Assembly: GCA_947492135.1 (NCBI GenBank) | Contig: CANLQR010000004.1 | Location: 1-44,857 of the forward strand | Origin: Deltaproteobacteria bacterium | GTDB lineage: Bacteria; Myxococcota_A; Polyangia; Nannocystales; Nannocystaceae | DNA: 44,857 nt | Direction of reading: 5' to 3' | Shown: piece after piece, positions 1 to 37,993 of the stretch | Layout: each line of letters starts with the position of its first letter | Numbering within the stretch: the stretch's first letter is position 1 | Notes under the pieces: generated by a model | The model's database searches: none | What the model was told of the DNA's origin: nothing | The model's input: only the letters and a program-made list of their open reading frames with translations | Program-made: the position numbers and the translations under genes

Positions 1-345
1 CCCGAGGGCCAGTGCGTGGTGCTGCCGCCGTTGTTCGAGGACCTCTGCGTGTTCGGGCCGCCCGGCGAATGCCCGCCGGAGTTTCCCGACCCGACGACGA
101 TCACGCAATCGCAGTGTCTGGAGTGCGAGGCCAACTGCATGCCCACCGATTATTGCAACTCGGTGGTCGCGACGGGATGGTCGATGCAAGGCTGCCAAGG
201 GGTCAGTGGGCCGGAGAGCCCGCCGGGCAGCGCCTGCCAGTCCGGCGATGGCTACGGATCGGCGGGGTTCACCAACGATGCCCAGGATGCCGCCTGTCCA
301 CCGGTCGCGGCGACGACGATGATGCTGCAGCTTTGCTGCGCGTGA
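1..345 (+). CDS. 3' end of a Cys-rich secreted protein (partial; the frame is open from nt 1, stop at 343-345)
   Basis: Frame 1 is open from the window edge. The product is Cys-rich (CxxC-like spacing, ECPPEF, CLECEANC), similar in character to the other Cys-rich lipoproteins in this window. No start codon is visible, so the gene is truncated by the window edge. Confidence 0.45.
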   Translation, partial: PEGQCVVLPPLFEDLCVFGPPGECPPEFPDPTTITQSQCLECEANCMPTDYCNSVVATGWSMQGCQGVSGPESPPGSACQSGDGYGSAGFTNDAQDAACPPVAATTMMLQLCCA

Positions 346-7967: not shown

Positions 7968-9092
7968 ATGCGTACCTCGATTTCGTGCCTTTCCACCGCC
8001 CTTGTCCTCGCCTGCCCGCTCGCCGTCGGTTGCTACGGTCCCGCGGACGCCGGCAACGACCACGACGCTGGCGCCTCGACCGGTGAGGCACAGGAGTCCG
8101 AGGGCAGCGACGACGCCAGCTCGACGACCCCCGAGCCCGGCGACGACGACGGCAACGAGGACAGCAGCGACGACGGTGCCGACGCCGGCGAGGATCCCGA
8201 CACCACCGCGGGCGACACCGGCGAGGTGGTCGACACCACGCCGCCGACTCTGGTGAGCAGCGTGCCCGCCGACGGCGACGTGGGGATCTACGCCGACACC
8301 CAGATCCGGCTGGTCTTCTCCGAGCCCATGGACAAGGCCAGCGTTCAGGTCGCCTACCAGAGCGCCGATCTGCCCGAGTTTTTCGTGACCATGGCCTGGA
8401 ACGACGACGGCGACGAGCTGGTCATCACGCCCGCCGGCCTGCTCGAGTACGGCGCCGCATCGTCGCCCGCCGAGGTCATCCCACGGGTCTACACCCTGAC
8501 GATCACCACCGCCGCGACCGACGTCGCCGGCAACGAGCTCGAGCAGGACGCGACCGTCGCGTTCACCACCCTCAAGGCCATCGTCCACGACCTGCCGATC
8601 GTCGCCGCTCTCACCGGCGCGGTGCGCCAGGACGGCGACGCCTACCCCGGGTTCATCATGGCCGGCGACGCGGCCCTCCCGGCCAACGCGCGGTGGAAGG
8701 GCTTCGTGTCGTTCGGCCTCGACGATCTACCCGACGACATCGCGATGTTCGTCGCCGCCGAGCTGGCCTACGAACAGCTCGACGTAATCGGCAGCCCCTA
8801 TGACGATCTCGGATCGCTCGAGATCCACGACGTGGTCTTCGGCGCGACCGATCTGACGGCGTTCGAGGCCGCGTCGACGGGTCCGGTGGGCATCAGCGAC
8901 GAGGTTGGCCTGGGCCAGGACACCTTCGACGTGACCCCGGCGCTGCAGGCCGATCTCGCGGCGGGTGCCGACCTCACCCAGTTCCGCTTCGAGTTCCCGG
9001 TCGCGTCCGACTTCGACGACGCCTACGACTACGCATTGTTCAGCGCGACGGATCCGGGCCCAGTGCTGCGCGTCGGCTACCTCATCCCGTGA
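7968..9092 (+). CDS. Acidic secreted lipoprotein with an SbsA-type Ig-like (Big_5) domain
   Basis: ATG at 7968 is preceded by GGAGAA. Lipoprotein signal MRTSISCLSTALVLACPLAVGC, then an Asp/Glu/Ser-rich linker, then TTPPTLVSSVPADGDVGIYADTQIRLVFSEPMDKASV, which is typical of SbsA_Ig. The 3' end overlaps the convergent kinase gene by 16 nt. Confidence 0.6.
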   Translation: MRTSISCLSTALVLACPLAVGCYGPADAGNDHDAGASTGEAQESEGSDDASSTTPEPGDDDGNEDSSDDGADAGEDPDTTAGDTGEVVDTTPPTLVSSVPADGDVGIYADTQIRLVFSEPMDKASVQVAYQSADLPEFFVTMAWNDDGDELVITPAGLLEYGAASSPAEVIPRVYTLTITTAATDVAGNELEQDATVAFTTLKAIVHDLPIVAALTGAVRQDGDAYPGFIMAGDAALPANARWKGFVSFGLDDLPDDIAMFVAAELAYEQLDVIGSPYDDLGSLEIHDVVFGATDLTAFEAASTGPVGISDEVGLGQDTFDVTPALQADLAAGADLTQFRFEFPVASDFDDAYDYALFSATDPGPVLRVGYLIP

Positions 9093-11872
9093 GCCGGTGT
9101 CCCCAGCGCCCGCCGCATCGACAGCTCGATCAACCGCAACAGGTTGGTCGAGCGGTCGGCGTTGGTGGTGCCGGCTCCGGCATAGATCCGTTCGGCCTCG
9201 ACCGCCCGGCCGATCGCCGCGTCGAGCTCGCCGTCGAGCCCATCGAGCCGCGACAGCTGGGCCAGAGCCAGGGCGGTATCCGGCGAGCTGGGGCTGTTGG
9301 CCCGCAGCGCCAGCACGCGATCGAGCTCGGTGCGGGCGTCGACGAACCGACCGAGATCGACCAGGACCAGCGCGCGGGCCTGGTGAGTGTGGGCGGTCTG
9401 AATGTGATCGGCGCCGATCGTGGCGACTTCGATGTCGGCGACCTGGTCGAGCCGCGCCAGCGCCTCGTCGAAGCGGCCCTGGCGGCGGCGCACCTCGGCG
9501 AGGTTCATGAGCACGCGCGCGGTCCGGGCGTCCTTGCGCGGCCCGGCGATCGCGAGCGCGCGCTCGAAGGCGAGCTCGGCCGCGGCAAGGTCGTCGCGCG
9601 CGTTCTCGATGGCGCCGAGGTTCAACCAGCCCGACACCACCCACGCGTGTTCGGGCCCATAGGTCGCGACGAACACCTCGATGGCACGGCGGGTGTACGC
9701 AGCGGCGGCCTCGAGGTCGGCGCCCGTCTGCGCCGCGAGGCCCAGGTTCATCAGCGCTCCGCCGACCCGGGGGTGCAGCGCGCCCAGTCGCGCCACCGCC
9801 TCGTCGTGCAGCGGGAGCAGCATGGCCCGCGCCTCGTGGTGACGACCCAGGCCGAGCAGCGTCGACGCGGTGGTCATGCGCGCGTGCCAAAGCTGGGATG
9901 CATCGCCATCGGCGGCGGACTCGAGCACCGCGATCGCCCGTCGGCACGCGACCAACGCGTCCTCGGGGCGGCCCTGGGCATCGTGGAGCTGACACGCGGC
10001 GCGGGCGATCCCGGCCTCGAGCTCGGGGTGCGATCCGTCGACCCGCGCGAGCGAGGCCTCGGCATGGCGGAGCCACTGCGCGGCGGCCTCGAGCTCCGCG
10101 GTGCGCGTGCGCTCGGTCGCGGCACCGTAGGCGCGGCGCGTCGCACGACGTGGCTGATCCAGAGCCATGGCAATCGCGTGGGAGTGCTCGATCGCTTCGG
10201 CGCCCGAGCCCGGCGACTGCTCGCCGCGGGCCAGGCCCAGCACGAACAGCGCGTCGCCTCGCGTCGCCTCGCCACCGTTGGCCTCGTCGAGGCTCGCGGT
10301 CGCGATCGCGATCGCGGTGGCATAGTCGCCGGCGAGGTGGGCGGCGCGTGCCGTCGCGATCCGACTGTCGATCGTGCCGTCGATGGCGGCGTCCTCGGTG
10401 CCTGCCCGCGACTCGGGTGACTCGCACTCGCGCGGGTCGGGCAGGCCATCGACGGCCGCCAGGGCGCGCTCGGCCAGCTTGGGCGACGCCTCGCCGAGGC
10501 GAGCGACCAGTGCGTCGGCGGTCGCGAGGCCCTCGCGCAGGCAGCCGACCCGCCGATCCAGCAAGGTCTCGTCCGCGACCCCATCATGCCACGTCGCTCG
10601 ACACGCGCCGACGTGGCGATCGATCCACCGCTCGCCCCACGCATCGACGGCCGCGCCGACGTTGGCCGCGGTGGTCTCGGCGTAGGGCACACCGGTGGCG
10701 CGTAGCGCCCGGCCGATCGCATCACGACGATCGGCGGTCCACACCGCGTCGAGCTCGGCGCGCGCCACCGCCGGATCGCAGCGTGGTCCGGTGTCCTCGC
10801 GCGCGTTGTAGACCCAGCCGAGCACACCGAGCCCACCGACGACACCCAGGCCCACCACCGCCAGCCGTCGACGTCGTCGCGACGCCCGCCCGATCGCAGC
10901 CAACAGCGCGGTCATGGACTCGAAGCGCATCGCCGGGTCGGCCGCCAGCGCGCGCTGCAGCAGCGGCGCGAACCAGCCCGGCACACCGCCGGTGACCGGT
11001 GGCACGGGCGGTCCGCGATCGATCGCGTCCAACAGCTCGATCGACGTCCGACCGGCAAACGGCGGCACGCCGAACACGACCTCCCACGCGGTCACCGCGA
11101 ATCCGAACTGATCGCTGCTGGCGTCGGCCCGCCCGCCCCGGTGCTGCTCGGGGGCCATGTAGCGCGGCGTGCCCATGATCGCGCCGGTCCGCGTCAGCGA
11201 CGACGACAGCGCCTCGTCGCGATCGTGTGCTCGCACGTCCGTCTCCGACGCGTCCGTGCGATCGTCGCGGGCCAGGCCGAAGTCTGCGACCTTCGCGGTG
11301 CCATCGTCCCCGACCAGGACGTTGGCGGGCTTGAAGTCGCGGTGGATCAGCCGGCGCGCGTGGGCGGTGCTCAGCCCGGCGCCGGCACCGACCAGCCACC
11401 GCAGCGCCGCCTCGAACCGATCGCGAGTGCCCGGCGAATGTTCGTGCGCCCACCGCTGCAGGGTCGTGCCGCGCACCAGCTCCATGGCGATGAAGTCGCG
11501 GCCGTCGATCGTACCGACCTCGAACACCTTCACCAGCCCGGGGTCGTCGACCGCGGCCATCGCCCGCGCCTCGCGGCGCAGCCGCTCGGTCGCGCCCCCC
11601 GATCCCAACGGCCGCAGGATCTTCACTGCGACCGCACGGGCCAGCGTGGTGTCGAGCGCCTCGTAGACCTCGCCGAACGCCCCCGCGCCGAGCCGTCGCA
11701 CGATTTGATAGCGCCCGAAGGATTCCGGCGGCGACTCGGTGCCGAACAACGACGCGAGCACGCCGCCGAGCCCATGACGGCCACCCAGGGTCAGCGGCGT
11801 GTCGGGGACGCGGGCCACGGCGGACGACGCGGACGCCTCGGACTCGTCGTCGTCACTGGACACGGGCGGCAC
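9077..11872 (-). CDS. Ser/Thr protein kinase with a TM segment and a C-terminal TPR-repeat region
   Basis: N-terminal kinase domain (GRYQIVRRLGAGAFGEVYEA...VAVKIL; HRDFKPANVLV; DFGLAR; GTPRYMAPE), a TM helix (VVGLGVVGGLGVLGW) and a long TPR/Ala-rich tail. Divergent (40 bp) from an ECF sigma-factor gene. Confidence 0.85.
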   Translation of the reverse strand: MPPVSSDDDESEASASSAVARVPDTPLTLGGRHGLGGVLASLFGTESPPESFGRYQIVRRLGAGAFGEVYEALDTTLARAVAVKILRPLGSGGATERLRREARAMAAVDDPGLVKVFEVGTIDGRDFIAMELVRGTTLQRWAHEHSPGTRDRFEAALRWLVGAGAGLSTAHARRLIHRDFKPANVLVGDDGTAKVADFGLARDDRTDASETDVRAHDRDEALSSSLTRTGAIMGTPRYMAPEQHRGGRADASSDQFGFAVTAWEVVFGVPPFAGRTSIELLDAIDRGPPVPPVTGGVPGWFAPLLQRALAADPAMRFESMTALLAAIGRASRRRRRLAVVGLGVVGGLGVLGWVYNAREDTGPRCDPAVARAELDAVWTADRRDAIGRALRATGVPYAETTAANVGAAVDAWGERWIDRHVGACRATWHDGVADETLLDRRVGCLREGLATADALVARLGEASPKLAERALAAVDGLPDPRECESPESRAGTEDAAIDGTIDSRIATARAAHLAGDYATAIAIATASLDEANGGEATRGDALFVLGLARGEQSPGSGAEAIEHSHAIAMALDQPRRATRRAYGAATERTRTAELEAAAQWLRHAEASLARVDGSHPELEAGIARAACQLHDAQGRPEDALVACRRAIAVLESAADGDASQLWHARMTTASTLLGLGRHHEARAMLLPLHDEAVARLGALHPRVGGALMNLGLAAQTGADLEAAAAYTRRAIEVFVATYGPEHAWVVSGWLNLGAIENARDDLAAAELAFERALAIAGPRKDARTARVLMNLAEVRRRQGRFDEALARLDQVADIEVATIGADHIQTAHTHQARALVLVDLGRFVDARTELDRVLALRANSPSSPDTALALAQLSRLDGLDGELDAAIGRAVEAERIYAGAGTTNADRSTNLLRLIELSMRRALGTPAHGMR

Positions 11873-11912
11873 GAGTCTACCCGAGGGCGGGTCGTGCTAG
11901 CGTGGCAGCGGC

Positions 11913-12509
11913 GTGGACGAGGATTTCGACCTGCTCGAGCGCTGGCGCGGCGGTGAGCGCAGCGCCGGCGAAGTATTGGTGACCCGCCACTTTGGCGCAG
12001 TGCGGCGATTCTTCGTCAACAAGACCTCGCGTGATCCCGACGACCTGACCCAGACCACGTTTCTGCGCTGCGTCGAGCAGCGCGAGGCGTTCGCCGGCCG
12101 CGGCAGCGTTCGCGCGTTCCTGTTCGGCGTCGCCCGCAACGTGCTGTACGAGCACTACCGCAAGGTCTATCGCGCCGACGTCGAGCCAGCGCAGACCTCG
12201 GTCGCCGATCTCGATCCCACGCCGAGCCAGATGGTCTCGGACATACAGTGGCACGGTCAGCTATTCGACACCCTGCGCGCGCTACCGGCCGAGATGCAGG
12301 TGCTGCTCGAGCTCCACTACTGGGAGGGCCTGTCGACCGCCGAGCTCGGCGTGGTGTTCGACGTGGCCCCCGGCACGATCAAGAGCCGGCTGTTCACCGC
12401 GCGCGGCGAGCTGCGCGAGCGAGCGCGCCGCCGCGGCTTCGATCTGGGCCTGGGCAAGGACGCGACGATCCCCGGCTGGGCCCGCAACCTCGCCGATCTG
12501 CGCGGCTGA
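11913..12509 (+). CDS. ECF-type RNA polymerase sigma-70 factor
   Basis: Sigma-70 region 2 (DLTQTTFLRCVEQREAFAGRGSVRAFLFGVARNVLYEHYR) and region 4 (LPAEMQVLLELHYWEGLSTAELGVVFDVAPGTIKSRLFTARGELR). No anti-sigma gene is adjacent; the partner appears to be the divergent STK. Confidence 0.85.
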   Translation: MDEDFDLLERWRGGERSAGEVLVTRHFGAVRRFFVNKTSRDPDDLTQTTFLRCVEQREAFAGRGSVRAFLFGVARNVLYEHYRKVYRADVEPAQTSVADLDPTPSQMVSDIQWHGQLFDTLRALPAEMQVLLELHYWEGLSTAELGVVFDVAPGTIKSRLFTARGELRERARRRGFDLGLGKDATIPGWARNLADLRG

Positions 12510-13711: not shown

Positions 13712-14713
13712 CTAGGGCACGCAGCAGACGGTGCGCGGTGCCGTGGCTTGCGCCGGGGTCATGCACCCCAGCCGCGTGTCGCCTGCCATTGCGGAGGCGA
13801 AGGCTCCGTTTTGCTGGCAGCCACGGCCCGCGACGACCTCGCCGGGGCTGGCCGGGGTCTCGCACATCGTGTCCGTGAAGAGCCAGACACGCGCAGCGCC
13901 ACACCATTCGCTCATCGAGCACGAGCACGCGGCGCACTCGACGTGCTGCGCCTCGGGCAGCGGCACGGTGCCCAAGGGGCACATCGCGGCGGGCTCGTCC
14001 GCCATCACACACACGCGCTGCATCGCATTGCACTCGACAGCGTCGGGCAGCACGCAGACGGTCCAGGGCGGGAGTTCGTCGGCGACCGGTACACCTTGGC
14101 CGCTGCATTCGCCGCCGGGTGCGAGAAACGAGATGTCCTGATACAGCGCCGGATTCGGGTCGGCGAAGTCGGACACGCACTGCGCTGCCAGGAGATCGGT
14201 CTCGGTCACCGACACGCCGCACCCGCCCGGCGACGAGAGCAGGCTGAGCGAGCACTGCTGGGCGTGCGGTCCACAGTCGCACCCGCATTCGACCGTCTCG
14301 GTGGTCGGCAGCAGCACCTCGACCTGGGACACTCCGTCCGGGCACTCGGGCGGGGGCTCGCCAGCGATGCCGATGCGAACGAGCATCCAGTCCGACCAAC
14401 CGTCTCCGGGCTCGATCGCGTCGGTCGAGCAGTCCGGTGCGCCCGAGGTGCTCGAGCCGGCGCCCTCGGTCGACATGGCCCCGGTGCTGGACTCGGTCGA
14501 GTCGGCGAGCGTCGTGCCCGGGCTGCTCGTGCCGACGCTGCTCGTGCCGACGCTGCTCGTGCCGACGCTGCTCGTGTCGACCATCTCGGTGGCCGACGAC
14601 GTGGGTGCGTCGATCGACGGCGCCTCGCCGAAGCAACCAGACAGCCCGAACAGGAACGTCGCGATGCCCAACGGCCGATTCACCACGAGTTGCAGGCCGA
14701 GTCGCAAGCGCAT
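13712..14713 (-). CDS. Cys-rich secreted lipoprotein (myxobacterial Cys-rich repeat type) with a (TSSVG)3 tandem repeat
   Basis: The internal ATG at 14713 gives the signal MRLRLGLQLVVNRPLGIATFLFGLSGC. A 15-nt x3 tandem repeat encodes TSSVGTSSVGTSSVG. The C-terminal half has more than 25 Cys in CxxC/ECP-type spacing. Confidence 0.65.
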   Translation of the reverse strand: MRLRLGLQLVVNRPLGIATFLFGLSGCFGEAPSIDAPTSSATEMVDTSSVGTSSVGTSSVGTSSPGTTLADSTESSTGAMSTEGAGSSTSGAPDCSTDAIEPGDGWSDWMLVRIGIAGEPPPECPDGVSQVEVLLPTTETVECGCDCGPHAQQCSLSLLSSPGGCGVSVTETDLLAAQCVSDFADPNPALYQDISFLAPGGECSGQGVPVADELPPWTVCVLPDAVECNAMQRVCVMADEPAAMCPLGTVPLPEAQHVECAACSCSMSEWCGAARVWLFTDTMCETPASPGEVVAGRGCQQNGAFASAMAGDTRLGCMTPAQATAPRTVCCVP

Positions 14714-14912
14714 GATCTCGAGCCTACCACTGCGGACGCGCGCACGCGCGCACGCGCGCACGTGCGTACGGCGTGCCCGGCCTCGTCACGGCAGTCGTTG
14801 TCCCCCCGGCGGGCCAGCACCAGGCACCGCCGAGACGCCACCAGCCGCCATGTCGCAGCGATTTTCCGCCTTCGGCAATCGAAAGGCTCGCTCGCGCATC
14901 GACCCTCGCGGA

Positions 14913-26929: not shown

Positions 26930-30040
<3,111 letters not shown>

Positions 30041-32371: not shown

Positions 32372-35317
32372 TCATCGCGCGGCTTCGAGCCACGCGATCA
32401 TCTCGTCCCGTTCGCGTCGGGCGACCCCTTCGCTGTCGGCAAGGGCTGCGATCGCGATGCGGATCTGCTCGCGCCCCCGTTCGGCGAGCGTCGGTGCGGC
32501 GAGCCACGCTCGACCGAGCGCGAAGCGAGCCGAGGCCTGAACGCGAGGATAGGCGCGAGGGGTCGGCGCGAAGATCGTGAGCGCGCGCTGGAGGGCAGCG
32601 ACTCCCCGAGCCACCTCACCGCGCTGCAACAGCGCACGCCCGAGCCCCACCAGCACGAACCCGATCGCCCGCGCATCAGGCCCATAGGTCTGCTCGAGGC
32701 GCAGCAACGCCTCCTCGAAGGCGACCAACGCCTCGTCATGGCGCCCCATGGCCGACAACACTACCGCACGCAGGTCGATACGACCGAGCAGATCCGGATG
32801 GTGCTGATCCTCGGGCAGTTGCGGCTCGTCGATCCACTCGGCCTGCGCGAGTGCCTCGTCGTGTCGGCCCAGATCGAGCAGAGCCAGCGCCATGCCGTTG
32901 CGCATCCACCCCTGTTGCAGGCCAGTCTGCAGGTCGCGCTGCATGTTGCTGATCGTGGCCGGTGCGTGGACCGGATCGGGGCGTTGGGTCTGGTACTCCA
33001 GCGCCTCGGCATACGTGGCCAGCGCCTGCGAGGCATCACCGCGCTCCCACGCGACGTCCGCGAGGTGACCCAGGGTGTGGCTCACCCAGACCGAATCGGC
33101 GCCGAAGACCTCGCGGCGGATGGCCAGAGCGTCGCCGAAGTACCGGTTTGCGGTGGCGAAGTCACCGACCACGAAGTAGGTCTCGGCAAGGTTGCCCGAG
33201 GCATTGGCCACCATGATGTGATGGGGTCTGAGGTCTTCGGTGACGATCGCGAGCGCGCGGGCGTAGTGCGGGCGCGCGGCCTCGTAGTCACCGCGGCGAA
33301 ACTCGGTCTCACCGATGAGGTTGTGGGCCTGCGCGAGCCAGCGTCGGCTCGCAGGGCCGCTGCGCTCGAACTGCGCACGAGCACGCTCGAGCAACCCAGC
33401 GGCGTCACCATCACGTTCCATCATCATGATCTCGGCCAGGCACAGCTCGATGCGACCCACGAGCTCGGGTGGATCGCCCATCGCTGCGGCCGCGACGCGG
33501 GCGCGTTGCTGACTGAGTTTCGCGCGCACGTAGTCGCCCTGCGCAAGATCGGATTCCATCGACGCCACCAGTGCCAGGGCGATCAGGTCGGGGCGGCGAG
33601 ACGACTCCGCCGCAAGTACGGCCGCGTGCATCGTCGCGGCCGGATCGACCTCATCGACGCTGCCGAGCAAGGGGTTCTGGAGCTCGGCGGTGACCAGCAG
33701 CGCCTCGGCCTCGAGCGAGCGCAGGCCGAGATCTCGAGCCCTGCGCGTGGCGTCGCGAGCAGCGGCGAGCCCTTCGACGAGCTTGCCGACGTCGCCGTAG
33801 GTCCTCGCGGTGGCGATGGCTGCACGCAGCTCGAGATCTTGCTCGGGATCATGGGCCGGCGCGTCCGCTGCCGGCACGACGTAGAGGCATTCGCCCGGCG
33901 CCCGCCCAGCGGAACCACCGATCGCGGTGTGCTCGACCATCTGGGCGTCGGCGCGAGCGAACGCCGTGGCCATCGACTCGAGCTCGAGCAACCGGGTGTG
34001 TAGACAGTACTGCTGGGCGATGCGCGTGCCATCGTCGACCGTCGCGGTACACGCCGCGTCGTGGGCCGCTCGCCAGGCCTCGCCAAAGCGATCGAACTCG
34101 AACACCAGGCGATCGGCGCGCTCCTCGGCGTGGCTCGACCCGCTGGCCGCGAACGCCTCGCGAATGCGCCTGGCCGCCGACGCATTCCATACCGCGGCGA
34201 GCCGATCGGAGCCGTGCTCGCAACCGGCGTTGGCGGCATCGACACGCTGTCGCAGCAAACCCAGGGTTGCCAGGCCGACGGCCGCAATTCCCAGCCAGCG
34301 CCGGGTTCGTCCCCGCGTCGGCTGCTCGAGCACCGCGAGCAGCGACGCCATGTCGGCGAAACGGCGCGCGGGATCGGTACTCAAGCCGCGTGTCACCAAA
34401 CCCCCGAGCCACCGCGGGACGTCGATCATCGGCGGACGCGGACGCGGCCGCTGCCGTCCAGCGGTGACGTTCGCGGCCAGCCCGGCGTGGTCGCGTCCAT
34501 CGAACGGGCGCTCGCCATACAGCGCCTCGGCGAGTGCCACGCAATACCCGAACTGATCAGAGCGCGCGTCGATCCGGCCCCCGAGGAATTGCTCGGGGGC
34601 CATGTACGCGGGCGTGCCGATCCCCGCGGTCGAGGTCGCCGTCTCGGCCACGGTGGTGTCGTCATCGGTACCCGCGACCCGAGCGATTCCGAAGTCCGAC
34701 ACCCGCACGCGGCCGTCGTTGCCGATCAGGACATTTTCGGGCTTGAAATCGCGATGCACGATCCCCGCGGTGTGGGCCGCCTGCAGGCCACGGGCAGCCT
34801 GCGTGAACACCTCCACCACCTCGCGCCAGGTCCGACGCGTGCCGAGCCACTGACGCAGGGTCGAACCCTCGACGAGCTCGAGCGCCACGAACACCCGACC
34901 TTGGTGGACCCCTGCGTCGAACACCGGCACGACGTTGGGGTGGGACAGCTTCGCCAACGACTTGGCCTCGCGGACCATCGCCGTCCGAGCGTCTTGCGGA
35001 CTCATCGTGTCGTGGAGCAGCTTGATCGCGACGCGGCGATCGAGCTGTGGAGCAGCCGCCATCCACACCTCGCCGCTCGCACCGCCGCCGAGACGCTCGA
35101 GCAACTGGTAGCGACCGACACTTGGCCCAGGCGCATCCCGTCCGAACAGTCGGGCTGCGAGTTGCGCGTGCCAATGCTCGGCCTGGAGGTCCCGACCCTC
35201 GGGGACGGCCTGTGCGACGCGGCCACCAAGGGCGTCGTCGATCCCGGCGAGTTTGGGCACGCGAGGTGAAGTTTCCCCCAAAATCGGCGACGTCGGGTCG
35301 AGACGCGTTGGGCGCAT
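32372..35317 (-). CDS. Ser/Thr protein kinase with a TPR-repeat C-terminal region
   Basis: Kinase domain GRYQLLERLGGGASGEVWMA...VAIKLL; HRDFKPENVLI; DFGIAR; GTPAYMAPE. TM, then TPR. The track ORF extends to 35449, but that would overlap the divergent lipoprotein gene start (35419) by 31 nt. I take the internal ATG at 35317 (MRPTRLDPTSPILGE...) as the likely start. Confidence 0.8.
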   Translation of the reverse strand: MRPTRLDPTSPILGETSPRVPKLAGIDDALGGRVAQAVPEGRDLQAEHWHAQLAARLFGRDAPGPSVGRYQLLERLGGGASGEVWMAAAPQLDRRVAIKLLHDTMSPQDARTAMVREAKSLAKLSHPNVVPVFDAGVHQGRVFVALELVEGSTLRQWLGTRRTWREVVEVFTQAARGLQAAHTAGIVHRDFKPENVLIGNDGRVRVSDFGIARVAGTDDDTTVAETATSTAGIGTPAYMAPEQFLGGRIDARSDQFGYCVALAEALYGERPFDGRDHAGLAANVTAGRQRPRPRPPMIDVPRWLGGLVTRGLSTDPARRFADMASLLAVLEQPTRGRTRRWLGIAAVGLATLGLLRQRVDAANAGCEHGSDRLAAVWNASAARRIREAFAASGSSHAEERADRLVFEFDRFGEAWRAAHDAACTATVDDGTRIAQQYCLHTRLLELESMATAFARADAQMVEHTAIGGSAGRAPGECLYVVPAADAPAHDPEQDLELRAAIATARTYGDVGKLVEGLAAARDATRRARDLGLRSLEAEALLVTAELQNPLLGSVDEVDPAATMHAAVLAAESSRRPDLIALALVASMESDLAQGDYVRAKLSQQRARVAAAAMGDPPELVGRIELCLAEIMMMERDGDAAGLLERARAQFERSGPASRRWLAQAHNLIGETEFRRGDYEAARPHYARALAIVTEDLRPHHIMVANASGNLAETYFVVGDFATANRYFGDALAIRREVFGADSVWVSHTLGHLADVAWERGDASQALATYAEALEYQTQRPDPVHAPATISNMQRDLQTGLQQGWMRNGMALALLDLGRHDEALAQAEWIDEPQLPEDQHHPDLLGRIDLRAVVLSAMGRHDEALVAFEEALLRLEQTYGPDARAIGFVLVGLGRALLQRGEVARGVAALQRALTIFAPTPRAYPRVQASARFALGRAWLAAPTLAERGREQIRIAIAALADSEGVARRERDEMIAWLEAAR

Positions 35318-35418
35318 GGTGACGGCCAGCACAACCGCGTCGCGCCGGGTTTCATTGGGCCCAGGTCCGCGCAATCGATCGCGATGGCCAGGGCCTCTAC
35401 CGCTGCCGGAGACACCCC

Positions 35419-36183
35419 ATGCCACGAACGACTTCACACCTTGGTCCATGCCTTGCCATCCTGAGCGGATTTTTCACCCAGCTGCCCGCGTGCGTGATCA
35501 GTGGCGATGGCGATGATGACAGCGGCGGTGAAAGTTCCGGCGCTGGCGATACCGACGACCCCAGCGCGACGATGACCGATCCAAGCGCGACCGCGAGTGC
35601 CTCCGACTCCGCGAGCGCCTCCGACTCCGCAAGCGCCTCCGACTCCGCGAGCGCGAGTGCGAGTGCGAGTGCGACCGCGAGCGACTCCGACTCCGCGAGT
35701 GCCTCCGACTCCGCAGACTCCGACTCCGCAGACTCCGGCTCTACCGCGGACGACTCCGGCGTCGACATCGTGCCCGCCGAGGGCCTATGGCAATACGAAG
35801 AAACCGGCGGTGGAACCAACGACTGCACGTTCCTGTCCGAGCCGAGCAACGGCTTCGGTCAGTTCCAGATCACGCTCACCGGACCTGCGAGCCTCACCCT
35901 CACGCCCGGCGACGAGACCGAGCCCTTCGAGTGCACGTTCGGCGGCGGCGCCTACGAATGTGCCGAGCGCCTGACCGGCATGACGGACGCTGCAGCTGGG
36001 CTCGACGCGGTCGGCCGCATCTTGGTGTCACTCGACGGCACCTTCGACAGCGCGACCGCACTGGTGGGCACCCAGAACGGTTCGATCGTGTGCGAGGGGG
36101 CCGACTGCGGCGTCGCAGCCCAGGCCCTGGGAGTCGCGTTCCCGTGCGCGTTCACGATCCCATTCATCGGTACCGCGCTGTGA
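35419..36183 (+). CDS. Lipoprotein with an (SASDSA)n low-complexity linker and a C-terminal Cys-containing domain
   Basis: GGAGA lies 6 nt before the ATG. Signal/lipobox LGPCLAILSGFFTQLPAC. An 18-nt tandem-repeat region encodes SASDSASASDSASASDSA... The C-terminal domain has 8 Cys. Confidence 0.6.
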   Translation: MPRTTSHLGPCLAILSGFFTQLPACVISGDGDDDSGGESSGAGDTDDPSATMTDPSATASASDSASASDSASASDSASASASASATASDSDSASASDSADSDSADSGSTADDSGVDIVPAEGLWQYEETGGGTNDCTFLSEPSNGFGQFQITLTGPASLTLTPGDETEPFECTFGGGAYECAERLTGMTDAAAGLDAVGRILVSLDGTFDSATALVGTQNGSIVCEGADCGVAAQALGVAFPCAFTIPFIGTAL

Positions 36184-36196
36184 AGCCCGACTAGAA

Positions 36197-36838
36197 TCAC
36201 TGCGCGCGCCCGGCGATCTCGCGGATCGACCGGGCCCAGTCCTCGAGCCCGGCGAGCGTCGAGTGCAGCTCGGGTTCGCCCGCGCCGAGCTCGGCCAGTG
36301 CGGCCTCGAGCAGCTGGCGTGCTCGACGAATCCGCGTGCGGACGGTGCCCTCGGGGATCTCGAGCACGCCGGCGAGCTCCGCGGCGGACAAGTCTTCCCA
36401 GTAGTACAGCTCGAGTACGACCTGCAGCTCGACGGGAATCCGACGCAGCGCGTCGAGCAGCAGGCGATGCTCTCGGTGCTGGGCGACCAGCGTCGACGGC
36501 GACGGTGCTTGGTCGTGGACCGACTGCACCAGCGGATCGAAGCGCGCTTGATCGCGGCCGCCTCGGCGCAACGCGGCATAGAGCTCGTGCCGCGCCACCG
36601 TGAACAGATAGGTACGGAAGCTCGAGTCCCCGCGAAACTGCTCGCGGTTTTCGACCAGCGCCAACAATGTGCGCTGGATTAGATCGTCGACGCCGTCGCC
36701 CGCGAGCTTGTTGCGAAAGAACCGGCAAAGCGCGTCGAAGTGGCGCTCGAACAGAGCACTACCCGCCGCGGTATCGCCGGCACGCCAAGATCCGAGCAGC
36801 TCGATATCGGTGGGCAACGCCCCCGGAGCGTACCGCAC
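36197..36838 (-). CDS. ECF-type RNA polymerase sigma-70 factor
   Basis: Region 2 (DDLIQRTLLALVENREQFRGDSSFRTYLFTVARHELYAALRR) and region 4 (IPVELQVVLELYYWEDLSAAELAGVLEIPEGTVRTRIRRARQLL). The start is taken at the in-frame GTG at 36838 (a TTG at 36817 is possible); the upstream part of the track ORF is non-sigma-like. It lies 23 nt downstream of the Cys-rich lipoprotein gene on the same strand. Confidence 0.8.
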   Translation of the reverse strand: MRYAPGALPTDIELLGSWRAGDTAAGSALFERHFDALCRFFRNKLAGDGVDDLIQRTLLALVENREQFRGDSSFRTYLFTVARHELYAALRRGGRDQARFDPLVQSVHDQAPSPSTLVAQHREHRLLLDALRRIPVELQVVLELYYWEDLSAAELAGVLEIPEGTVRTRIRRARQLLEAALAELGAGEPELHSTLAGLEDWARSIREIAGRAQ

Positions 36839-36861
36839 CGGTGGCGGTAAGCCACGGTCGC

Positions 36862-37809
36862 CTAGGCCGGAATCAGGCAGGCGCCGACGGTCTCGTAGCC
36901 TGGCGGTGCCTGGCCCTCTTCGTACCAAGCGACGCACTCCTGGCCCCCGGCCGCGCCTGGGCAGTTCGCGGTCGAATCGGGATCGGTGAAGTCGCAGAAC
37001 GACGAGCAACAACCGATCGATCCGGCACACTCGGGCACGCCCTCGGGCGCAGCACAGAACAACCCGGGGTCGCAGACGTTGAGAAACTCGCAGCCCTCGC
37101 CGTACAGGCCCTGCTCGCCGCCGGCATCGGGGACGCACGAGAACGCGTCGTTGGTCGGATAGCAGGCCTCGCCCTCGGCACAATCCTGCAGCAGAGGATC
37201 ACAGTTTGGCAGACACAGGATCAGCACACCATCGTTGAGGATGTTGCAGCTGGTCGCGGGATCTTCACAGATGGGGTTCGCTTCAGAGCCCTCACAAAAC
37301 GCGACGCAGGTGCCGAGGTTGGTCTCCGGGTCGACGTTCCAGCACATCGAACTCTGCTCGCAGTTGTCGATGCCGCTGACACCCGAGCCCTCGACCGTAC
37401 ACGAGTCGCCGATCACCGCGGCGGCGTCGTCTTGCGGTGAACAGCGCGTCGCGTTCCACGAGTTGCCGCCGTCGTTTGCCCACGGCATGCACTTTTCGCC
37501 TTCCGGGCAATCCTGGGCCCATACGTCGCACTGGGTGCCGTCGATCCCGCCGTCGGGGTTGAGGATGAAGGTCCCGCCGTCGTCGTCGCCGCCACTGCTG
37601 GTCTGGGCGCCGGTCTCGACCCCGGGCTCGCTGGGGTCGACGGGCGGGTCGTCACTGGCATCGTCACTGCCGCTGCCGCCGCTGCTGCTGTCCTGGGCTT
37701 GGGTCGGGTCGACCGTCACGCTGGTTCCGGTGAGCGCGTCATCCTTGGGCGCGGCGCAAGCCACGGTCAGCAGCGCCAGCGCGCAATAGGGGGTCATACG
37801 GGTCTTCAT
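36862..37809 (-). CDS. Cys-rich secreted lipoprotein (myxobacterial Cys-rich repeat type)
   Basis: Signal/lipobox MKTRMTPYCALALLTVAC. An acidic Ser/Gly/Asp linker is followed by about 30 Cys in repeated C..C..C / CPEGE / CEGSE spacing. It appears co-transcribed with the downstream ECF sigma gene. Confidence 0.7.
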   Translation of the reverse strand: MKTRMTPYCALALLTVACAAPKDDALTGTSVTVDPTQAQDSSSGGSGSDDASDDPPVDPSEPGVETGAQTSSGGDDDGGTFILNPDGGIDGTQCDVWAQDCPEGEKCMPWANDGGNSWNATRCSPQDDAAAVIGDSCTVEGSGVSGIDNCEQSSMCWNVDPETNLGTCVAFCEGSEANPICEDPATSCNILNDGVLILCLPNCDPLLQDCAEGEACYPTNDAFSCVPDAGGEQGLYGEGCEFLNVCDPGLFCAAPEGVPECAGSIGCCSSFCDFTDPDSTANCPGAAGGQECVAWYEEGQAPPGYETVGACLIPA

Positions 37810-37993
37810 GGGCAGTTTCTCCTCGTGGGCGGGTGGAACCAGGGACGGTTTTACCTTGGACTCATAAACCTACAAACGCAACAGCTTAAACTAACAAATC
37901 TAATCTAACCCACAAAAATGCGCTTATCGCGCGGATTTGCTTCGGAACCGGACGATCGCTGCTACGCTGCGCACCCCCCGAAACCGAGGCCCG
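37810..37993. promoter_or_regulatory. AT-rich divergent promoter region between the Cys-rich lipoprotein/ECF sigma operon and the MVP-like gene
   Basis: The core 37861-37920 (ctcataaacctacaaacgcaacagcttaaactaacaaatctaatctaacccacaaaaatg) is about 35% GC in a 70% GC context. It contains repeated CTAA/TAAC motifs. GAGG lies 3-4 nt before the MVP ATG. Confidence 0.45.

Follow-up and report, generated by a model that had tools for sequence, protein, structure and literature searches.

An ECF sigma factor beside a Ser/Thr kinase, a cysteine-rich lipoprotein and a major vault protein homologue in a Nannocystaceae genome

Gene content of the locus

The stretch of DNA analysed here (the window) comprises 44,857 nucleotides of contig CANLQR010000004.1 from a deltaproteobacterial assembly (GCA_947492135.1); its GC content is 69%, and its closest relatives are metagenome-assembled genomes of the Nannocystaceae (Myxococcota). 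We focused on a minus-strand gene for an extracytoplasmic function (ECF, group 4) sigma factor (36197-36817) and on its neighbours. Upstream of it, on the same strand, lies a gene for a Cys-rich lipoprotein (36862-37809), which a 184-nt spacer (37810-37993) separates from a divergent, plus-strand gene for a homologue of the bacterial major vault protein (MVP; 37994-40510). On the other side, a second lipoprotein gene (35419-36183, plus strand), convergent with the sigma gene, lies between it and a minus-strand gene for a Hanks-type Ser/Thr kinase with TPR repeats (32372-35449). A first-pass annotation had placed the Cys-rich lipoprotein and sigma genes in a single transcription unit driven from an AT-rich region of the spacer, and had taken the same region for an MVP promoter, with MVP co-regulated with the sigma factor. 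Comparing this arrangement with related loci (designated by L numbers), we arrived at a different reading, in which the sigma factor would be one half of a signalling module and the kinase with its TPR region the other.

The sigma reading frame matched Sigma70_r2 (2.2e-11) and Sigma70_r4_2 (1.4e-13), which places its product among the ECF (group 4) sigma-70 factors, and scored 100.1 bits against TIGR02937, for which the cut-off is 42.9. The kinase, of up to 1025 aa, matched Pfam Pkinase (2.9e-39) and TPR_12, carries the VAIK, HRD and DFG motifs, and has its kinase domain at about residues 100-380 and a hydrophobic segment at about residues 385-400. The MVP homologue (838 aa, beginning at ATG 37994) matched PF11978 (MVP_shoulder; 3.4e-26, 92 bits) and PF17795 (Vault_3; 3e-10, 40.5 bits), as expected of a member of that family. 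The Cys-rich lipoprotein (315 aa) had no match in Pfam or NCBIfam at E<=0.01, the second lipoprotein (254 aa) had none in Pfam, and an Rfam scan of the whole window returned nothing.

The distance between the Cys-rich lipoprotein and sigma genes depends on which start codon is assigned to the latter. The 23-nt gap given in the first-pass annotation holds for the in-frame GTG at 36838 (213 aa). In the orthologues at L004, L073 and L084, the TTG homologous to 36817 is the first possible start; we therefore begin the gene at that TTG (206 aa), leaving 44 nt after the lipoprotein stop codon.

A sigma factor clade encoded beside Ser/Thr kinases

A metagenome scan with the sigma factor (47-81% identity), together with loci found via MVP, yielded 29 distinct relatives at 46-81% identity. 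A kinase domain is encoded within 700 nt of the sigma gene in 19 of the 29 and within 3 kb in four more, and the six relatives for which no kinase was detected are all on short contigs or have short flanks. Among the 19, some kinase genes follow the sigma gene directly on its strand and the others are divergent from it upstream; the former arrangement, with gaps of 20-120 nt, is seen at L084, L087, L090-L092, L094, L097, L098 and L106. The kinase orthologue adjoins the sigma orthologue at L004, L073 and L084. The window itself contains a second such pair: a paralogous ECF sigma gene (11913-12509, plus strand), whose product is 44% identical to the first, is divergent from a kinase-TPR gene (9077-11872, minus strand), with a spacer of 40 nt. 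These recurrent pairings point to the kinase at 32372-35449 as the probable cognate regulator of the sigma factor.

The next gene after the sigma gene is the convergent second lipoprotein gene, so that the sigma gene is not followed by an anti-sigma gene on its own strand, as had been noted previously. Pfam and NCBIfam scans of all flanking open reading frames (ORFs) identified no anti-sigma domain. A canonical sigma/anti-sigma operon was rejected on the ground that no anti-sigma gene lies immediately downstream on the sigma strand. Several ECF groups are associated with Ser/Thr kinases, typically without anti-sigma factors (PMC7826278). Since the sigma relatives almost always adjoin a Ser/Thr kinase gene, as does the in-window paralogue, the missing anti-sigma gene corresponds to this known kinase-associated layout.

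An alignment of 28 sigma relatives revealed what the clade holds in common. Region 2.2 has the consensus xxDDL[IV]QRT (xxDDLIQRT in the window sigma factor), with two conserved Asp residues and an invariant Thr after QR; an SSFRT motif and a Ser/Pro-rich linker (PSPS) are likewise kept. Beyond region 4.2, nearly all of the aligned sequences end in a conserved tail of 30 residues that carries the motif L-[ED]-x-W-A-[RK]-S. The window sigma factor has a single Cys, which is not in the tail.

Members of ECF43, in which the acidic DAED/DxxD motif of region 2.2 is lost and the phospho-acceptor Thr lies in QTTA/STTA, are defined by these very positions (PMC13147305, PMC8999054). We rejected assignment to ECF43 in the strict sense, because region 2.2 of this clade retains two conserved Asp residues in place of QTTA/STTA. 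The earlier suggestion of a kinase-associated or anti-sigma-less ECF group thus stands insofar as the clade is found almost always beside Hanks-type Ser/Thr kinases, and fails for ECF43 proper. Reviewers have remarked that in other kinase-linked ECF groups a DAED-like motif is retained and the mechanism may differ; the window clade fits that description. A CorE-like ECF238 assignment was also rejected, as the sigma tail is without Cys.

Two starts can be considered for the kinase, ATG 35449 and Met45 at 35317; the ORF from 35449 overlaps the start of the divergent second lipoprotein gene (35419) by 31 nt. In tblastn comparisons similarity begins at residues 6-12 in L073 and L004 and at residue 52 in L084, and Met45 may be the true start. 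A third kinase-TPR gene is present in the window at 26930-30040.

The second lipoprotein carries a lipobox (LPAC), a linker rich in Asp and Ser, and a domain of 140 aa that contains 8 Cys. L004 and L073 keep it (68-76% identity), and a relative (37-43% identity) follows the kinase at L087 (about 11459-11992) and L090 (about 11402-12013). By this distribution it is a better candidate for an accessory of the sigma-kinase module than the Cys-rich lipoprotein.

A promoter-like element at the sigma gene and an unstable junction

In 24 of 27 sigma relatives, irrespective of the upstream gene, a TAnnnT hexamer, often in the extended -10 form TGCTAnnnT, precedes the start codon by 5-10 nt. The background frequency of TAnnnT is 3.4% per 42-nt window, giving a binomial tail of 1e-32, which is an upper bound on the significance because the sequences are related. 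In the window the hexamer is TACGCT (36827-36832, minus strand), 9 nt upstream of the TTG, and TGCTAGCGT occurs 10 nt before the GTG start of the paralogous sigma gene. We infer that TACGCT is part of the sigma gene's own housekeeping-type promoter, which would generate a near-leaderless mRNA with a predicted start near 36819-36821. Such a promoter would suit a sigma factor with constitutive synthesis and post-translational activation.

The junction between the lipoprotein and sigma genes also differs from one relative to the next. The gap of 44 nt in the window becomes 74 nt at L073 (= L085) and 237 nt at L084, and at L004 it is about 1.4 kb and includes a WGR-domain gene on the opposite strand. 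The 237 nt at L084 include a partial, out-of-frame duplicate of the last 70 codons of the lipoprotein (L084 7742-7957), positioned between intact lipoprotein and sigma genes, which suggests a recent rearrangement at that junction. At L001, MVP and the lipoprotein are present and the sigma orthologue is absent; the sigma factor encoded nearby is an unrelated, convergent ECF with a SnoaL_2 extension (26% identical). Among sigma relatives below about 75% identity, the lipoprotein gene is never directly upstream. The lipoprotein gene adjoins the sigma gene only in one narrow lineage, and their co-transcription is not a conserved design.

The AT-rich island and the probable promoters of the lipoprotein and MVP genes

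The spacer between the lipoprotein and MVP genes had been described as the most AT-rich part of the window, with CTAA/TAAC repeats. The description is correct for an island at 37849-37908, which is the lowest-GC 60-nt stretch of the window (32%, against 42% for the next lowest) and includes, within 20 nt, three copies of CTAA and two of TAAC. The spacer as a whole has a GC content of 54%, and the island contains no repeats of 8 nt or longer.

Alignment of the spacers from the window, L001, L004, L073 and L084 identified a conserved island core, TTTGTTAGTT(T/A)A in the sense of the lipoprotein gene; the core motif TTTGTTAGTTTAA occurs once in the window (37886-37898, minus strand). In L001, L004, L073 and L084, TTGATT-N17-TAT(G/C)NT comes after the core, and a Shine-Dalgarno sequence with the ATG comes about 40 nt later. 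The window counterpart is weaker, TTAAGC-N17-TATGAG at 37889-37861, with the -10-like TATGAG at 37861-37866 on the minus strand. The island is thus a candidate sigma-70-type promoter for the lipoprotein gene with an upstream AT-rich element, and the lipoprotein gene would be driven by this strong promoter of its own, with a predicted transcript start at about 37854 (minus strand).

MVP appears to be served by a different element. The extended -10-like sequence TGCTACGCT lies at 37960-37968 (plus strand), 25 nt upstream of the MVP ATG, and is kept at about 25-30 nt in the window, L004, L005, L012, L073 and L084, with TGCTATCTT in its place in L001. At L005 and L012 MVP is 86% identical, and both the lipoprotein gene and the island are missing; the island co-occurs only with the lipoprotein gene. 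The conservation of TGCTACGCT, regardless of whether the lipoprotein gene or the island is present, suggests that it is MVP's own promoter, with a predicted transcript start at about 37975 (plus strand), and speaks against the island as the MVP promoter. A consensus sigma-70 scan of this region of the window gave no match at threshold, so these promoter assignments rest on cross-species conservation.

A search for the ECF-type -35/-10 motif that co-regulation would call for identified GGAAC 16 nt before CGCT upstream of MVP. This pair occurs in the window only; none of the orthologous MVP promoters examined has it. Nor is any ECF-type motif conserved before the MVP, lipoprotein or sigma genes, with the island included in the search. 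Co-regulation of MVP with the sigma factor has no support beyond proximity, and proximity itself carries little weight because kinase and ECF sigma genes are dense here.

A large family of Cys-rich lipoproteins

The first-pass description of a secreted 315-aa lipoprotein with about 30 Cys proved accurate. The protein qualifies as a bacterial lipoprotein, with an N-terminal signal peptide and a lipobox, MKTRMTPYCALALLTVA (LTVA before C18), that has a small residue at -1; of its 28 Cys, 26 follow the lipobox Cys18. Both Cys18 and all 26 mature Cys are invariant in 53 aligned homologues, whereas an acidic, predicted disordered linker of about 70 residues (roughly 19-88) is not conserved among them. 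AlphaFold2 produced a confident all-beta model of residues 90-315, with per-residue confidence (pLDDT) mostly above 90. The 225-aa domain consists of two related modules of about 110 aa, with an internal repeat score of 92 against 41.6 +/- 8.6 for shuffled sequences. These features are consistent with an exported, disulfide-bonded, membrane-anchored protein that has a binding or structural role.

Homologues are abundant: more than 2,343 after clustering at 90%, and 2,806 clusters at 50% identity in a profile search, 1,271 of them at E<=1e-30. Matches with a named source are from Nannocystaceae or other Myxococcota. Nearly all members have 290-330 aa and the same architecture; the profile search uncovered no fusions that would hint at function, the architecture being almost constant at about 300-330 aa. 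The window protein is a member of this very large myxobacterial family, whose lipoproteins are probably exported and rich in disulfides. Its domain resembles small disulfide-rich modules such as colipase, Dickkopf, knottin-like and TNF-receptor-type Cys-rich domains in being all-beta with a high density of Cys, and its best structural matches, which are weak, are of that kind; the family (the window protein and homologues P0001-P0270) is without a structural relative. NCBI names such proteins 'ribulose phosphate epimerase', and we rejected a ribulose-phosphate 3-epimerase since there is no TIM-barrel family match and the model is all-beta and disulfide-rich. The name is apparently a propagated misannotation; correcting it and building a family model would be useful.

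Paralogues of the lipoprotein occupy other conserved contexts, none of them next to a sigma gene. At L003, L116 and L117 the lipoprotein gene follows glutamate dehydrogenase and HslVU genes, accompanied by LspA at L116 and L117; at L118 and L119 it lies between Metallophos and SLT genes on one side and a gene for a 487-489-aa protein on the other; and L002 offers a further, different context.

Two additional Cys-rich secreted proteins in the window (1-345 and 13712-14761) had been called proteins of the same flavour. Neither has detectable similarity to the lipoprotein or to the other (tblastn, E<=1), and the likeness of the three is compositional only. The gene at 13712-14761 is convergent and further downstream of the second sigma gene, and its product has no homology to the two lipoproteins encoded near the first sigma gene.

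The wider neighbourhoods of MVP

MVP relatives were sought in GTDB species genomes, where 84 stretches were found and the best 80 kept. The window, L004, L073 and L084 share the order MVP, divergent from lipoprotein, sigma and kinase. At L005 and L012 the sigma gene is instead divergent from a kinase gene that leads into MVP, with 48 nt between the end of the kinase ORF and the start of MVP. Elsewhere, a kinase gene is directly downstream of MVP at L027, L032, L035, L042, L045 and L063, and divergently upstream at L018 and L023. The presence of a kinase beside MVP in several myxobacterial lineages may reflect chance, given the kinase density, or a recurrent link. A 2019 preprint reports no gene context for bacterial MVP.

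The type of MVP promoter seems to differ by lineage. Many MVP genes of the Kofleriaceae/Haliangiales have a sigma-54-like TGGACGCGTTCGTGCA or TGGACGGATTCTTGAA about 15-30 nt upstream of the start (L027, L028, L032, L035, L036, L038, L040-L043, L045, L048, L049, L057 and L070), and further upstream of these sites are TGCTCC...GGAGCA palindromes resembling enhancer-binding-protein sites. At L031, L034 and L046, TGCTATACC is placed 7-8 nt before the MVP ATG, in a leaderless-like arrangement. Downstream of MVP in the window, a minus-strand gene (41503-43086) encodes a 527-aa secreted protein with a proprotein-convertase P-domain at its C-terminus.

Weighing the explanations

Taken together, these observations make it likely that the neighbourhood is for the most part an ordinary, lineage-specific one, in which three units (sigma-kinase, Cys-rich lipoprotein and MVP) lie side by side and are each independently promoted, because the sigma factor is of a known kinase-paired kind and the lipoprotein and MVP genes each apparently have a promoter of their own. 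The original alternative, an operon transcribed from the AT-rich island whose sigma factor also acts on MVP from the same region, draws on the short same-strand gap (23-44 nt) with no terminator-like site found in it in the window, on the recurrence of the MVP/lipoprotein/sigma/kinase order at L073 (= L085) and L084 and, with an insertion, at L004, and on the GGAAC-CGCT pair in the window. We consider it improbable: the -10-like element of the sigma gene is conserved across the clade, an opposite-strand gene intervenes at L004, GGAAC is missing from every orthologous MVP promoter examined, TGCTACGCT is kept without the island at L005 and L012, and the sigma-70-type TTGATT-N17-TATGNT of the island points towards the lipoprotein gene. 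The shared promoter and obligate co-transcription once proposed are equally at odds with the 237 nt at L084 and with distant sigma relatives that have no lipoprotein gene. A broader version starts from the presence, in two arrangements and with paralogous modules, of an ECF-sigma/kinase module always beside MVP in this Nannocystaceae lineage; it would have the kinase and ECF factor control the expression or assembly of the bacterial vault-like particle, and make the Cys-rich lipoprotein an envelope component regulated along with it. To this we attach little credence, and we found no evidence of a special link between lipoprotein, sigma factor and MVP.

Two other alternatives concern the signal that reaches the sigma factor. 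The Cys-rich lipoprotein might be a lineage-specific accessory of the module, an extracytoplasmic ligand or co-sensor for the TPR region at the kinase C-terminus that takes on the sensory role of an anti-sigma factor. Adjacency persists across relatives that have diverged to a fair degree (67-71% identity for the lipoprotein, 77-81% for the sigma factor, 61-66% for the kinase), and a membrane-spanning hydrophobic segment would place both the lipoprotein and the C-terminal region of the kinase outside the cytoplasm. Yet sigma-kinase pairs at 46-72% identity do without a Cys-rich lipoprotein, its paralogues reside in unrelated contexts, L001 keeps it beside MVP where the sigma orthologue is absent, and it is the other lipoprotein (35419-36183) that recurs in the distant modules at L087 and L090; the proposal is accordingly doubtful. 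The sigma factor might alternatively be controlled mainly by something other than the kinase, with the 30-residue tail as a fused regulatory extension or with an unlinked anti-sigma factor. Other ECF groups include sigma factors with short regulatory extensions (PMC7826278), and the conservation of the tail, like that of the acidic residues in region 2.2, speaks for this idea. The tail might just as well be a docking site for the kinase, no conserved feature is stronger than kinase adjacency, and the flanking genes tested encode no anti-sigma-like domain, so that we regard this explanation, too, as unlikely.

Several points weigh against the main reading, with its sigma-kinase module and independently promoted units. 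The density of kinases in such genomes (three kinases and two sigma genes within the 45-kb window) inflates chance adjacency, although it does not account for immediate neighbours in 19 of 29 cases, and the related loci are phylogenetically non-independent. The hydrophobic segment of the kinase is short and falls below the standard hydropathy threshold. With its acidic region 2.2 residues the sigma factor may not need phosphorylation to bind core RNA polymerase, and the kinase could have another mode of action. A TTG start is unusual on a leaderless mRNA, and read-through from the lipoprotein promoter into the sigma gene may occur in the window genome across so short a gap.

Relation to known systems and implications

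The sigma-kinase module closely resembles other kinase-associated ECF systems, namely ECF43 (EcfP/PknT of Vibrio parahaemolyticus and EcfK/PknS of Xanthomonas citri), ECF59, ECF61, ECF62, ECF217 and ECF283. All share a two-domain sigma factor, no co-encoded anti-sigma factor and an adjacent Hanks-type kinase, and the kinases follow a common plan of an N-terminal kinase domain, a hydrophobic segment and a large C-terminal region. Where ECF43 has the uncharged QTTA/STTA, the window sigma factor keeps xxDDLIQRT, and it differs from the kinase-associated groups in its conserved C-terminal tail and, in this lineage, in the lipoprotein gene between sigma and kinase. Canonical ECF operons such as RpoE-RseA and SigW-RsiW share with it the sigma protein family, whereas here there is no downstream co-transcribed anti-sigma gene, and a housekeeping-type extended -10 element replaces a conserved autoregulatory GGAAC...CGT-like promoter. 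The metal-sensing CorE-like ECF238 of Myxococcus is likewise a myxobacterial ECF without an anti-sigma factor and with associated Cys richness; in CorE, however, it is the sigma factor itself that bears the Cys-rich segment, as a C-terminal extension, and here the Cys-rich protein is a lipoprotein encoded by a gene of its own and probably exported.

For the ECF43 members EcfP and EcfK, phosphorylation has been shown to activate the sigma factor directly (PMC8999054, PMC13147305). By analogy with EcfP/PknT and EcfK/PknS, we propose that the window sigma factor is probably made constitutively, from its own extended -10 promoter, and that phosphorylation by the kinase most likely turns on its activity post-translationally. 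The invariant Thr of QRT, the conserved Ser-rich linker (PSPS) and the SSFRT motif are candidate phosphorylation sites; as the sigma factor keeps two acidic residues in region 2.2, the site is probably not that of ECF43.

The locus provides a clean example in Myxococcota of the kinase-coupled ECF layout that dispenses with an anti-sigma factor. With its acidic region 2.2, conserved C-terminal tail and leaderless-type housekeeping promoters, this non-ECF43 clade could help to define how kinase-linked sigma factors outside ECF43 are activated.

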